This document shows, piece by piece, positions 54,743 to 59,930 of a DNA stretch of 64,000 bases. The first letter of the stretch is position 1. The number at the start of each line of letters is the position of its first letter. The notes beneath the pieces are model-generated. The model was not told where the DNA came from. It saw only the letters and a program-made list of their open reading frames with translations, and did no database searches. The stretch comes from Sarea resinae. Lineage: Eukaryota. The stretch is taken from the NCBI GenBank assembly GCA_026026165.1, contig JAPEUD010000013.1:248001-312000 (forward strand), in the 5' to 3' direction. Position numbers and translations under genes: made by a program.

Positions 54743-56025
54743 ATGCCCACAAGCCTCTTCCGCCATGCCCCTACCACTTCACAGCAAGAACAATCACGAC
54801 CGATGACGACCGCACCACTTCTCAGCTCGCAGAGGAGCGAGCCGGCATTATGCCCCACCGACGACGAGGCCATCCCTCCGAAAGTCGTTGCCAAGGACGA
54901 GCCGGCACTATGTCCTACAGACGATGAAGCCATCGCCCCCAAAAAGACGGAGAAGCAGAGTTTGGACTATATACTTCGGACTGGGCTCGCCGGTGGAATG
55001 GCCGGATGCGCCGTACGTCTGACTGATTTTATCTCTCTTTGCATCCATTTCCAGCAGCTAACATATTCACGCCCCTTCAGGCCAAAACCGTCGTCGGCCC
55101 TCTCGATCGCGTCAAGATCCTTTTCCAAGCCTCCAATCCACAATTCGCAAAATACACGGGCTCCTGGACCGGAGTCATCACCGCCCTCAACGACATCTAC
55201 CATCAAGATGGCATGTTGGGGCTCTTCCGCGGCCACTCCGCGACGCTCCTCCGCATCTTCCCCTATGCCGCGATCAAGTTCCTCGCATACGAGCAGATCC
55301 GCGCCGTCATCATCAAAGACCGCTACCACGAGACGCCGTTCCGGCGATTAATCTCGGGCTCACTGGCGGGCATAACGTCCGTCTTCTTCACGTACCCACT
55401 CGAGGTCGTCCGCGTGCGTCTGGCGTTCGAGACCCGCCGCGACTCCCGCTCCTCCCTAAAATCCATCTGCAAGCAAATCTTCCACGAAAAGCCCTCGATC
55501 CCCTCTCCGCCCTCGGCTGCCACCACCTCGGCAGCTACCGCGTCCGTGTCGACGGGCCTCCACCGCGCCACTCCCCGCTCGGGCCTCGCCAACTTCTACC
55601 GCGGCTTCAGCCCCACGCTCGTCGGCATGCTGCCCTACGCGGGCATGTCGTTCCTCATGCACGACACGGCGGGCGACTGGCTGCGCCACCCGCTCGTCGC
55701 CGAGTACACCACCCTGCCCGATGCCCACCACATCTACCACCCGCCGCTGAAATACTGGGCCGAGCTGCTCGCGGGCGGGTTCGCCGGCCTGGTCTCGCAG
55801 ACGGCGTCGTACCCGCTCGAGGTCATCCGGCGGCGCATGCAAGTCGGCGGCGCGGTCGGCGACGGCCATCGCCTCAGCATGGGCGAGACCGCGGCCCGCA
55901 TCTGGGCCGAGCGCGGCTTCAAGGGCTTCTGGGTCGGTTTGGGCATCGGCTACGCCAAGGTCATCCCAATGGTCGCTACGAGCTTCTTCGTCTACGAGCG
56001 CGGTAAGCTGTGGTTGGGGCTGTGA
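54743..56025 (+). CDS. LEU5: Mitochondrial coenzyme A carrier (SLC25A16/A42-like), 2 exons
   Basis: SLDYILRTGLAGGMAGCA|AKTVVGPLDRVKILFQASNP, RGHSATLLRIFPYAAIKF, TYPLEVVRVR, SYPLEVIRRRMQ: three PX[DE]XX[KR] repeats; start at 54743 or 54803. Confidence 0.93.
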
Positions 56026-56685
56026 TGTTGATCCTTGGCTTCATGTGGTTGTGACGTCGAGGAAGGAGGTAGCACGGGAATGAGAAGAAGAGGTGGCCTT
56101 TCCTTCGGTCAGCCCTCCTTGGATGGACGAATGCATGCACAGATGGATGGATACATTGCGCTTTTCGAAAGACTATCTCTTCTCTCCTATCCACTTCCCT
56201 TCACTTCAGTAAGAAACCATGCTCGGAAAATATATCTCTGGGTCGGCATTTTCAACGGCGTTTCTTGCTTTTCCTGGTCTCTCGTTAGTTTTTTGCCACG
56301 CTTTCTGTTTCGCATCAATTTTTTTCGGGGCGGTTGGGGGGGGGGGAGGGGTTATGAGAGGGGGGGGAGAAGGATCCTATAACGTACGTCGGGTGTGTCC
56401 GACGATGACGTACATGGGCACACGGGCAGATAGGTCACGTCGTAGGTAGAGTCAGGCAAGATCAGATCGGCTAGGATGAGGTTGAGACTGAGGATGAGGC
56501 TGCAGCATATAACGCCAGCGCGGGATGGGGCGGGGTGGTCAATAGATAGATCTATAAGTGATGAATGAATACCTAAGATATCTATCTACCTTACCTTGCC
56601 TTACCTTACCATACCTACCGTATTCCTCCCTCCTCCTCGTCCTCCTCCTCCTCCTCCTCCGACGAGAGTCTCGTGCATCAATCGA

Positions 56686-57900
56686 TCAAGGAAGTGGCGG
56701 TCCAGAGGCAGAGGGAGATGGAGGTGGCGGAAGTAACAGCCCCCGCAAGCGCTCGTCGGCAGATACGAGGGATGCCATCTCGTTCGCCCAATCCACTTTG
56801 AATTGTGCTTTTCCGGGCCCAGGCCCAGGCCCATGCTTGTCGTCGCTGGCTCCGTCGGTGGCGCTGAGATCATCACCTTCACCCTCGCCACAATCAGAAT
56901 CGCTCGCAAGTACGGCCGCCCTCAATAAAACCACCGTGTCCATGAGCGCTTTCTTAGTCTCGTCCAAGCCGGCCTCGTGCCCCGTCTTTTTCTTCCTCCC
57001 CACTCCCTTTTCCGGCCCCTCGTCCTCTTGCTCCTCGAAAATCCTAAGCCAGCACCCCGTGACGCCGACCAAGATCTCCGCCCGATGGCCCGCGACGCGC
57101 GGCCAGGCGTTCCGCACGAGCGCCTGCAGGGCCGTCGCGGCCGCCAGGAGCAGCGGCGGGTACGCGGAACCAAAGGGCGCATCGAGGACGTCCCGGGCCA
57201 GGAGCGTGACGAGGTCGTGCAGGTGCCTGACGGAATAGACGGCCAGCTCGTCGAGGAGCGGGACGAGCTGGGTGAGGAGGACTTCGGCGACGCGGACGTG
57301 GTCGCCGCCGTGCGCGTAGCCGCGCAGGAAGCCGTCGCGGAGCACGGCGTCGAGGAAGAGAGCTTTTTCGCCTCTTTGGGCCGCGCTGGCGAAGCGGGCG
57401 CGGGACAGCGAGATTAGGGCCGGGTAGGCGGCCGCGAGTAATGGGAGTGAGTCTGCTTCCGGGGTGAGCGGTGGTAGGTAGGCGAGGCATGGCATTAGGG
57501 CTGCTTGGAGGAGGTCGCCGAGACCGGTGCGGGCGAGGAAGGCGGGCGGGGTAGAGCGGAGGAGGAGCGAGAGGAGGTTGCAGCCTGTGGTTTTGTGGGC
57601 TGGGGAGGGGTCATCGATGAGCGTCAGCAGCGGCGGCATGATGAGTGGCCAGTGAGTTTCAACAATGGCCGGTTCGGCGTTCTGAAGTACCCATTTGAAG
57701 ATCTGGAGGGCGTAGGCGGCGTCCTTGCGCTTCCACGGCTCGTCAGCAGCCTCGCCGAAGTCGTGTTTTCGGTGGAGGGATTGGATTGACTGGACGGCCT
57801 TGCGGCCGTGAGGCGTCAGTCCAGGGTGACCGTTTGACTTTGCAAAGAGAGGTCGGATGGTGTGGGCCAGGAAGTGTGCGATTAGGCTATTGGTCAGCTC
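56686..57900 (-). other. TTI2: Tti2 (TTT complex subunit, DUF2454)-like helical-repeat domain, C-terminal part of the CCA1 ORF
   Basis: TIRPLFAK..T..GRK, PWK, HWPLIMPPLLTLIDD..K..GC.LL, RTGL..L..CLAYLPPLTP...SLPLL..AYPAL, NAWPR: motifs I recognise from fungal Tti2. Confidence 0.75.
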
Positions 57901-59930
57901 ACCTTTGCCTGCGCTGCCGCTTCGGAGCTCGTCGAGCGCTTCGTCTGCGCTGGAGGCGTGCGGGTGACGGAGCTGCCAGGCCATGACGACATCGAGGGCG
58001 TCTTTCATCCACGGACCCGGCTTGATTTCGAGGGCTTCGGCGATTTGCTTACCGCTGAGGATGGGCTTGAGGGAGTAGGCGGAGAGAAGGTCTTCGGTCT
58101 CTAAGTGGGAGAGGAAGATTGAGAAGCCTTTGAGAACGTCTATAAGTTGAGAAAAGGTTAGTTCTCACATAGGACTTTGATCAGGATGTAATTAAAGGGT
58201 TGTACCCTGTCTTGACTCCTGGCGATCTATCAATTCTCGAAGGAGTGCTAGGAGAGCATGAGATCTCCAGTTAGGACCCCATCTTCGGATTGCCATCCCA
58301 AGAGTATCTCGAGCGGTAGCGCTGTCATCCTTTCCGCGTCGGGACGGAGCTTTCGCCTTTGCCTCTACTACTCCATCCTTGAGGTTTTTGATCTCCTCAG
58401 CATTCCTGAAGGCGCCAACGACGACATCGAACACCTTATTATTCGCTTTGATGCCTTCTTTCGCGACGCTGGCAGCCACGGGTGGTGGGATTTTGGACCC
58501 ACTTCGTGGTGGATCCGGCGTGTCGATCCAGGGTGTGAGAGCAGTTAGTATCCAGGCGAGATAGTCGTCCTCTTTATTTCGAATCAGAGTCGATGATATG
58601 TTCGTTTCAAAAGTACCAGACGGTGTTGAATCTTCAGCGCCAGCGCCAAGGAGGTCTTGAGCACAATCATATGCAATAGCCCAAGCTTGCGTAGATGGTG
58701 TAGGCAAGTCGTCTTTGGTCGGGTCGGTGAAGATGGTATCGTACAGGTTCAGCCGGTCGATGAGCTCCAGAGCCATTTTTGGATCGGGGCCTAGATTGCA
58801 AGCGTTCAGTGACTCGAGCATTTGTTTGGCAAGATTCATGAAATACCTCTAAGCATCTTTTCGACTTCTATTCCCACTCGCTCGCGGCTAATCTTCAATC
58901 TCAAGGCGTCCTTGATACCCTGATCACCCATGCAGACTTCAGCTTCTTTATCAATCTGGAAGTCTAGCCTGCTGGCGAAGCGGATCAATCTCAAGACTCG
59001 CAAGGGGTCGTCTTTGAAAGTTTGATAAGGAGCAAGGGGGGTTCGAATGATTCTCTTCTGCATATCTTCAAGACCCCGGCCAGTATAGTCCTCGACAAGG
59101 CCTGTATGGATGTTGTAGAACAGGGCATTGACGGTTGCATCGCGTCGCAAAGCATCTTCCTCTGGAGTACCAAATTCCATTTGCGGGTTACGACTGTCTT
59201 CGGAGTAGGTTTCTTTCCGGAGGTTGACGAGGTCGATGTCAAGATCCAAGATTCTCGTCGTCACAGTCTCCAAATGTTTGCTCTTCTCCGGATTTGCTTC
59301 GATCTTGTGCAGGCCACCAACGAGCTTCTTCTTGACGGACGAATCCGGATCGGTTCCTTGGTCATTTGCGGCGCTGTCTCCTAGTTCATATTTCTCAAGC
59401 ACGCCGGGGAGTTCGAGATATTCTTTCATCCGGAGGCCGAACTGGTAGCCTGTCATCTTATTGATGGCCACATCGATATCGTGGCTCTCCAGACCCATAA
59501 GCTTGTCTCTGACCCATCCTCCAGAGAAACGAAGCTGCATCTTTGCGTCGACCAGGTCCTTGGGGACCGTCTGCTCCGTGCCTGATGGCGCTGGCGTCTG
59601 ATCAATGTGCTCTGCCACATCGCATAGGAGTTGGCGGAGGCTGCTCTCGACTGGGTTGAGGTTGATGGACAGATCGAATGGGGGCTGAGTGTCGGGGACT
59701 TCTTGGATCATCATCTTGGAAGAGATTGCAAACTCTCGCGAGTCCAGTCTCCGTCTCTTTGAGCGGCCTTGTTCTTCGAAGTCAATGGGCTGGCGCTGTG
59801 CCATCAATCGTCGCACTATCAGCGGGGAGAGGTATCGTCTTTGCTCGTGTAGGCACACGGCAGGAATTGGGATGATCCGGCGGCAGTTGACTACGTAGAC
59901 GCAACAATTATACCAGCGTGTTAGACGCAT
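56686..59930 (-). CDS. CCA1: CCA-adding tRNA nucleotidyltransferase fused in frame to a C-terminal Tti2-like domain (exons 59930/59804-58847, 58790-58206, 58139-56686)
   Basis: RFSGGWVRDKL..SHDIDVAI, NPEKSKHLET, DLVNLRKETY, FGTPEEDALRRDATVNA, DDPLRVLRLIRFASR, KISRERVG, tail KPGPWMKDALDVVMAWQL; exon 3 stays open for about 400 more codons. Confidence 0.92.

Follow-up and report, generated by a model that had tools for sequence, protein, structure and literature searches.

The CCA-adding enzyme gene of yeast, CCA1, has several in-frame starts, which give mitochondrial and nucleo-cytosolic forms. Tti2, called TTI2 in human, is a subunit of the Tel2-Tti1-Tti2 (TTT) co-chaperone of the PIKKs (phosphatidylinositol 3-kinase-related kinases). 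Exitrons are alternatively spliced introns that lie within protein-coding exons and have been described in plants and humans, reportedly by Marquez and colleagues in 2015. The gene considered here has points in common with each of these. It is encoded on the minus strand of a 64,000-nucleotide stretch of Sarea resinae DNA (contig JAPEUD010000013.1, positions 248,001 to 312,000), the whole of which is called the window below, and consists of a CCA-adding enzyme, CCA1, followed in frame by a Tti2-like domain. At the joint between the two parts lies a conserved element of 65 nt with GT..AG ends (57902-57838). In our estimation the locus is probably one transcription unit that gives two products by alternative splicing of this frame-shifting element.

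The PolyA_pol head domain, the motifs, the C-terminal tail and several in-frame starts are shared with Cca1 of Saccharomyces cerevisiae and with cca1 and cca2 of Schizosaccharomyces pombe (PDB 9ns2-9ns4). However, unlike an ordinary CCA1, the window gene meets a stop codon of the usual type only after removal of the 65 nt; otherwise the frame runs into Tti2. The second half has in common with Tti2/TTI2 of the TTT complex (human 7f4u, 7ole) the Pfam domain PF10521, a match to human residues 217-426 and an all-helical solenoid in the predicted model, whereas the start codon and the N-terminal residues of a stand-alone Tti2 are absent. As in exitrons, GT..AG lies inside a coding exon, the coding potential is complete if the element is retained, and the element is removed in part of the transcripts, here in those of relatives. 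It differs from exitrons in that its length is not a multiple of three, that splicing yields the canonical enzyme while retention adds a second protein, and that it is conserved at the level of a class and beyond. Conjoined or read-through genes and 'Rosetta stone' fusions likewise join same-strand tandem neighbours of unfused relatives. Here, however, the fusion is old; it became fixed in the DNA when the spacer and the N-terminal region of Tti2 were lost, and it is accompanied by a splice switch that would restore the separate first product.

No description of a CCA1-Tti2 fusion or of the 65-nt element was found in the full-text literature searched. The papers found on exitrons and frameshifts included none on fungi by title or abstract, and among the matches listed on TTT structure none was on filamentous fungi by title or abstract. 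The fusion itself is already visible in databases yet undescribed; the splice switch is the new element. The features of the gene are as follows.

59928-59930, minus strand: upstream in-frame ATG, 42 codons before ATG 59804, from the upstream translation.
59804-56686, minus strand: the CCA1-Tti2 gene, from ATG 59804 to the stop codon TGA 56688-56686, with two GT-AG introns.
59804-58847, minus strand: exon 1, head domain of the CCA-adding enzyme, from the translation and PF01743.
58846-58791, minus strand: intron 1, 56 nt, GT..AG; its removal yields the public protein P0004.
58790-58206, minus strand: exon 2, body domain of CCA1, from the translation and alignment.
58205-58140, minus strand: intron 2, 66 nt, GT..AG, with a CTAAC branch motif inside; an intron at the same position is excised in cDNA-like contigs of relatives.
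58139-56686, minus strand: exon 3 overall, a single uninterrupted frame holding the CCA1 tail and the whole Tti2-like part.
58139-57903, minus strand: exon 3a, C-terminal tail of CCA1 (..GPWMKDALDVVMAWQLRHP..) and then a short low-confidence linker, SGSAGK.
57902-57838, minus strand: candidate 65-nt alternative intron, GTGAGC...AAG, which is GT plus 21 codons (ELTNSLIAHFLAHTIRPLFAK).
57837-56686, minus strand: exon 3b, alpha-solenoid body of Tti2, low-complexity C-terminal region and stop TGA 56688-56686.
57745-57743, minus strand: TGA reached only with the 65 nt removed, which closes the predicted 624-residue CCA1-only product.

The spliced coding sequence comprises 2997 nt and 998 amino acids (aa) with no internal stop, and exon 3 lies in a stop-to-stop open reading frame (ORF) of 492 aa (56686-58164). 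From Met31 onward the 998-aa model is identical, letter for letter, to the public 968-aa protein P0004, which its source labels a hypothetical protein and assigns to a Sarea resinae genome assembled from a metagenome (NCBI class Sareomycetes). An earlier, sequence-only reading of this DNA had arrived at the same two GT-AG introns and the same frame to 56686, which were reproduced here, but it missed the conserved 65-nt GT..AG element inside exon 3. Exon 3b shares the frame of CCA1 only when the 65 nt are retained. Exon 1 has further in-frame ATGs at codons 31 and 32, and the public model begins at the former. The extension from ATG 59930 adds 42 residues that are rich in Arg and include one acidic residue (MRLTRWYNCCVYVVNCRRIIPIPAVCLHEQRRYLSPLIVRRL); it may be a mitochondrial presequence. 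Taken together, the upstream ATG and those at codons 1, 31 and 32 resemble the multi-start arrangement of yeast CCA1.

Pfam assigned PolyA_pol (PF01743) to exon 1 with an E value of 1.4e-24 and 87.3 bits against a cut-off of 23. In the full 998-aa protein this domain scored 83.1 bits, and PF12627 scored 23.9 bits against a cut-off of 22. The Tti2 domain PF10521 was found on exon 3 with an E value of 6e-72 and 242.9 bits against 25.2, covering profile positions 21-278 of 279. The order of domains, PF01743 and PF12627 in front and PF10521 behind, is the one that the sequence-only reading had led it to expect, and the class II motifs that it had described as intact are legible in exon 1 as GGWVRD..DID (GGWVRDKLMGLESHDIDVA) and EDALRRD (EEDALRRDAT). 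Both motifs are invariant among 12 aligned fused proteins. The carboxylates of GGxVRD..DxD and nucleotide selection by EDxxR/RRD are what we take to define class II CCA-adding enzymes. By domain and motifs the first half is a class II CCA-adding enzyme of the PolyA_pol superfamily, with predicted activity; by Pfam the second half is a member of the Tti2 family, for which TTT assembly and a PIKK role are predicted.

The protein encoded by exon 3 (P0001) was used as the query in a phmmer search of the PDB and for an AlphaFold2 model. Residues 12-65 matched residues 424-477 of 487 in S. pombe cca2 (9ns4), and the CCA1 tail aligned to the last 60-70 residues of both S. pombe cca2 and cca1 (9ns4, 9ns2). 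Residues 133-353 matched human TTI2 residues 217-426 of 508 (7f4u_C, 9wjy_B, 7ole_J) with an E value of ~1e-3. The AlphaFold2 model, built from a 34-row alignment, had a mean predicted local distance difference test (pLDDT) score of 83.2, with values >90 over most of residues 140-370 and <50 in the linker at residues 75-77. The stretch encoded by the 65 nt coincides exactly with a single predicted helix (residues 80-99), which opens the solenoid and follows the low-confidence linker. Foldseek and VIA-align returned generic HEAT/ARM solenoids (importins etc.) with Z 14-16 that start at model residues 77-84. Foldseek gave zero matches in the PDB at E <=0.001, and no TTI2 chain was among the structural matches listed by the two programs, which are too generic to tell family membership. 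The last 60-70 residues of the 998-aa protein are low-complexity sequence of Gly, Pro, Asp and Ser with low model confidence.

The distribution of the fusion was evaluated in proteins and in metagenome contigs. PF01743 and PF10521 occur together in 73 of 73 proteins of 847-1092 aa, the exon 3 search having been limited to the longer proteins. Leaving aside two Eurotiales entries and the protein of the window itself, the entries with a named source are from Dothideomycetes, and the fused type was found in Zymoseptoria, Cercospora, Alternaria, Parastagonospora, Aureobasidium, Macrophomina, Trypethelium and other genera. The suspicion, voiced in the sequence-only reading, that similar fusions stood unremarked in other Pezizomycotina annotations was thus borne out by 73 of 73 long proteins, almost all from Dothideomycetes. 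One long fused protein is filed under Quercus suber and is presumably from a fungal contaminant. A quick maximum-likelihood tree was calculated from 33 long fused proteins picked to cover a range of taxa, with the two Eurotiales models as the root. The window protein was sister to all 30 Dothideomycetes, with a support of 95 in the Shimodaira-Hasegawa-like approximate likelihood ratio test (SH-aLRT), indicating that the fusion is at least as old as that split and that the window protein is not a contaminant nested within Dothideomycetes. In two stand-alone Tti2 models, P0079 (Watsoniomyces obsoletus, 374 aa) and P0088, the N-terminal region is preserved in part; the Tti2 of their lineages is 38-39% identical to that of the window, and the two models could help to place the fusion in time with respect to Arthoniomycetes and their allies.

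Metagenome contigs were scanned with an alignment of 12 fused proteins, and the results refer to the best 80 of 514 confirmed loci. In 37 of these loci, as in the window, one open frame leads from the CCA tail motif (GPWMKDALDVVMAWQLRNP) into Tti2 and continues through 313-417 aa of Tti2 where the contig is long enough. The same fused arrangement is present with a variant tail motif (AYQ for AWQ) in L012 and L013, which are outside the 37. Judged from these sequences, the frame is kept open across the joint far beyond chance.

The element itself was compared in 30 distinct versions taken from the 37 metagenome loci and the window. Its length is 65 nt in all 30, its first six bases are GTGAGC in all 30, and its last three are AAG in 19 and CAG in 11. 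The fixed GTGAGC means that Gly is always encoded by GGT (or Ser always by AGT), Glu always by GAG and Leu always by CTN, and the AAG or CAG end means that the last Lys or Gln codon of the element always ends in G. In the same sequences, control codons were mixed. The Gly of G.W was GGC in 15, GGT in 8, GGA in 4 and GGG in 3, and the Gly of RTGL was GGT in 11, GGC in 7, GGA in 5 and GGG in 3. The Lys of PWK was AAG in 20 and AAA in 7, and the Glu of LTPE was GAA in 17 and GAG in 7. Overall codon usage was 0.25 for GGT (among Gly codons), 0.12 for AGT, 0.58 for GAG and 0.61 for AAG. The invariance of the signals, set against mixed control codons, argues that the splice sites themselves are under selection. 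Most copies of the element also carry a branch-like motif, CTTAC or CTGAC, ~23 nt ahead of the 3' end. Furthermore, GTGAGC..AAG/CAG is kept in four fused genes that have no ordinary introns at all, each consisting of a single ORF (991-1016 aa) and lying on a long contig (11-160 kb):

L006, 2624-5620: intronless fused gene.
L008, 5065-8088: intronless fused gene.
L014, 5749-8724: intronless fused gene.
L050, 2753-5803: intronless fused gene.

The retained reading is constrained as well. The element-encoded HFLxLTIRPLF, and the IRPLFAK/PWK stretch, are conserved and are common to stand-alone Tti2, and the PWK motif just downstream of the element is nearly invariant. The window element combines a canonical GT..AG inside a coding exon with constraint at the protein level on the retained segment. 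Removal of the 65 nt in the window leaves 624 aa from ATG 59804, ending in an out-of-frame tail of 31 residues. The spliced frame stops within 1-31 codons in 27 of the 27 sequences examined, and after one codon in 12 of them; for the window, a stop within 31 codons of a shifted frame is not unusual, and no significance is claimed for it. The spliced C-terminus and that of unfused CCA1 are of equal length. A GT..AG of 16 nt at the joint (GTGAGCTGACCAATAG) was also considered as an intron and was ruled out as too short.

These comparisons bear on the possibility that the joint is an artefact, either an error of assembly or annotation that merged two genes or splicing noise at cryptic sites. The record is named as a metagenome-assembled genome, and two Eurotiales proteins, P0061 and P0062, do look like predictor merges of full-length neighbours. 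However, 37 independent metagenome loci and 73 proteins have this same joint, with its 21-codon segment and free of stops, and the conservation of splice signals at synonymous sites speaks against noise. An artefact is exceedingly improbable.

Excision of the element is seen in relatives. Two cDNA-like contigs, L028 and L038, are 99-100% identical to the genomic loci L027 and L039, respectively, and lack exactly the 65 nt GTGAGC...CAG at the joint (L027:1966-2030; L039:7663-7727). Both also lack a canonical GT..AG intron at the position of window intron 2 (50 nt in L028, 47 nt in L038). The excision shifts the frame, and CCA1 ends one codon later, after ..KNEI and ..GQTDK. Proteins that end at the spliced joint were present among the ORF calls of the Joint Genome Institute (JGI; P0109, P0115, P0119), the Logan-derived proteins (P0103, P0137, P0138, P0163, P0187) and the NCBI models (P0123 of Coniothyrium glycines, 551 aa; P0126 of Ascochyta lentis, 552 aa). 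Besides the 552-aa P0126, Ascochyta lentis has a fused model, P0074, of 905 aa.

The retained form is represented by P0104, which JGI called as a protein of 908 aa on a contig of 3165 nt and which is a 99% match to the genomic locus L043. Relative to L043, the 49-nt intron 2 is skipped and the 65 nt are kept. When made on genomic contigs, JGI calls run on into introns (P0166 on L024, P0174 on L026), and P0104 therefore implies a processed template that lacks intron 2 and retains the 65 nt across the whole fusion. The short Tti2-only proteins P0078, P0081-84 and P0087 were considered as separate Tti2 products and rejected. Since they begin with the first ATG in exon 3 and include the helix encoded by the 65 nt, they are uninformative ORF calls on unspliced DNA.

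If the 65 nt were never removed in Sarea resinae, the gene would encode a single bifunctional polypeptide of 998 aa, possibly cleaved later. The open, conserved frame agrees with this, as does the public annotation of the Sarea resinae record, which is the fused form; moreover, the window element lacks CTTAC and has the longest spliced tail. However, the window has kept both GTGAGC and the terminal AG, and these signals are present in 30 of 30 sequences whose control codons vary, among them those of the deep sister lineage of the window. Excision is observed in relatives, and a mitochondrial isoform of CCA1 would, if the fusion were constitutive, drag Tti2 into mitochondria. This constitutive fusion is considered quite improbable. 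The sequence-only reading had offered a single polypeptide, proteolytic separation or isoform choice; the first two were not supported as put forward, and isoform choice was strengthened by the finding of a conserved frame-shifting 65-nt intron at the joint that is excised in relatives.

In the splicing scheme that we favour, removal of the 65 nt would shift the frame to TGA 57745-57743 and yield a CCA-adding enzyme of ordinary length, with 624 aa from ATG 59804 and fewer or more from the other in-frame starts. Retention would carry the frame through the first helix of the Tti2 solenoid and on to 56686, giving the 998-aa CCA1-linker-Tti2 protein. The fusion protein would be the minority isoform, the majority of transcripts giving free CCA1, and this proportion would be in keeping with an enzyme that is abundant and a chaperone subunit that is scarce. 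Initiation at ATG 59930 could produce a mitochondrial form of CCA1, in which case splicing would keep Tti2 out of mitochondria. In the window there are no in-frame ATGs between Met567 (998-aa numbering) and the conserved region encoded by the element. Because the residues of the element are conserved and no ATG follows Met567, Tti2 has to be read from a retention-type RNA in the frame of CCA1. Tti2 function would most simply be supplied by the fusion protein. We infer that Sarea resinae splices the element, that the fused polypeptide is a working Tti2 and that there is no second TTI2 gene.

The N-terminus of the fused Tti2 is truncated. The fused part lacks the ~157-200 N-terminal residues that precede the helix ..HFLxLTIRPLFAK.. 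in stand-alone fungal Tti2. The stand-alone proteins P0091, P0100 and P0096 have 117-157 residues ahead of the Pfam domain, which in P0091 begins at residue 158 of 571. When the N-terminal regions of stand-alone Tti2 were used in tblastn, no match was found in the window, and in the fused loci with their flanks only the last ~30-50 residues were matched. The window protein does not have the full-length architecture of stand-alone Tti2, and the gap is visible in the alignment. Alignment, Pfam and tblastn thus agree with the sequence-only reading, which had remarked that the Tti2 part seemed to be without its usual N-terminus. In a study of the human proteins (Pal et al. 2021, PMC8278493), TTI2 1-193 pulled down TTI1, while the C-terminal portion was insoluble. 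By extrapolation from the phmmer alignment, the fused fungal Tti2 would start at about human residue 160-165.

The truncation also bears on a different arrangement, that of two overlapping genes. The CCA1 mRNA would then always be spliced, and a second, shorter transcript, initiated within CCA1 and still containing the 65 nt, would serve for Tti2, with translation from Met559 (GPWM) or Met567 (VVMAWQ) and the full fusion rare or absent. The observed continuity of the frame would be needed equally. All fused sequences listed contain the GPWM Met, the context of Met567 includes a purine at -3 and G at +4, and the spacers of 109 nt (L041) and 242 nt (L037) between CCA1 and TTI2 in unfused relatives mean that a TTI2 promoter in or abutting CCA1 may be ancestral. 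However, P0104 implies a processed RNA that covers CCA1 from its start as well as Tti2 and still contains the 65 nt. The GPWM Met has T at -3, which is a poor context, and Met567 is absent in some fused loci (L019 TVIAWQ, L054 VVVAWQ). Both Met residues are also found in unfused CCA1, so neither is diagnostic. Moreover, a free Tti2 without its ~160-200 N-terminal residues would lose most of the part by which human TTI2 pulled down TTI1 (PMC8278493). Overlapping genes are possible, but we consider them doubtful.

Several points weigh against the proposal of one gene with two spliced products. The 30 element sequences are related and cannot be counted as so many independent events, although synonymous sites are well mixed, as the control codons show. 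The window element lacks the CTTAC of most relatives and has CACAC at that position; weaker branch candidates are CTAAT, 44 nt before the 3' end, and CCGAC, ~13 nt before it. The 31-residue spliced tail of the window is the longest seen. The template of P0104 is deduced from the protein call. The direct cDNA-like evidence comes entirely from Pleosporales-like sequences, and splicing in Sarea resinae is extrapolated from relatives of only 40-55% protein identity. Accumulation of the fused polypeptide, its binding to Tti1 and its activity as Tti2 are predictions from sequence. Finally, most of the counterpart of human TTI2 1-193, the fragment reported to bind TTI1 (PMC8278493), is absent from the fused protein. 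The missing Tti1-binding end is a difficulty for any model of how the fused Tti2 joins TTT. One conceivable answer, which we regard as unlikely, is that the retained product is the sole Tti2 of the cell and that the CCA1 body replaces the Tti1-binding N-terminal region, so that a tRNA-binding enzyme would be part of TTT and of PIKK maturation.

The unfused relatives suggest how the fusion came about. There are 33 unfused loci, a count that leaves out second motif hits and the two cDNA-like contigs, and in these CCA1 ends 39-46 aa past the G.W tail motif. In 24 of the 33, CCA1 is closely followed, on the same strand, by a full-length TTI2 complete with its N-terminal region, and at least two unfused loci with >5 kb of downstream flank (L044, L059) have no TTI2 there. 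The spacer from the CCA1 stop to the TTI2 ATG, measured in two loci with both genes on the same strand, was 109 nt in L041 (7685-7799) and 242 nt in L037 (7721-7968). Such spacers leave little room for a terminator and a promoter, so that unfused fungi may already co-transcribe CCA1 and TTI2 or house the TTI2 promoter inside CCA1. In the fused type, a short variable linker comes after the CCA1 tail, and Tti2 sets in directly behind it at the helix ..HFLxLTIRPLFAK... A deletion that took out the stop codon of CCA1, the short spacer and the 5' part of TTI2, its tandem neighbour, is the most likely origin of the fusion. Since CCA1 and TTI2 are already tight tandem neighbours in unfused relatives, the fusion may be a by-product of their adjacency.

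The two Eurotiales proteins are of a different kind. P0061 (Penicilliopsis zonata) and P0062 (Aspergillus karnatakaensis) have 1087-1092 aa and contain CCA1 and a complete Tti2 with the N-terminal region, and other Eurotiales have a stand-alone Tti2 of 540-609 aa. P0061 and P0062 are probably predictor merges of tandem neighbours, real read-through splicing being the alternative.

Downstream of the window gene, simple repeats lie directly 3' of the stop codon (~56590-56665, minus strand), a GGA/GGAGGA run being followed by GGTAAG-like repeats. A gene for a mitochondrial carrier (Mito_carr, E value 4e-60; 55027-56025, plus strand) converges on the 3' end of the CCA1-Tti2 gene, with ~660 nt between the two coding ends.

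The locus places two essential housekeeping functions, CCA addition to tRNA and PIKK/TOR maturation, in one gene across a very large group of fungi, and it also illustrates the merging of two abutting genes into one. The 65-nt element accounts for conflicting annotations, such as the 552-aa and 905-aa models of Ascochyta lentis, and gives annotators a rule. It offers a clean natural case of a frame-shifting intron in a coding exon that is kept by selection and would choose between an enzyme and an enzyme-chaperone fusion. The locus also raises the testable question of how a Tti2 without its Tti1-binding end works in the TTT complex. A functional tie of tRNA maturation to PIKK/TOR biogenesis, as suggested in the sequence-only reading, is purely conjectural. 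If the CCA1 body did take its place in TTT, splicing of the 65 nt would set the ratio of free CCA1 to TTT-bound CCA1-Tti2, and a whole fungal class, including many crop pathogens, would have a direct link between the status of tRNA 3' ends and the biogenesis of TOR and the other PIKKs (TOR, ATR, ATM).

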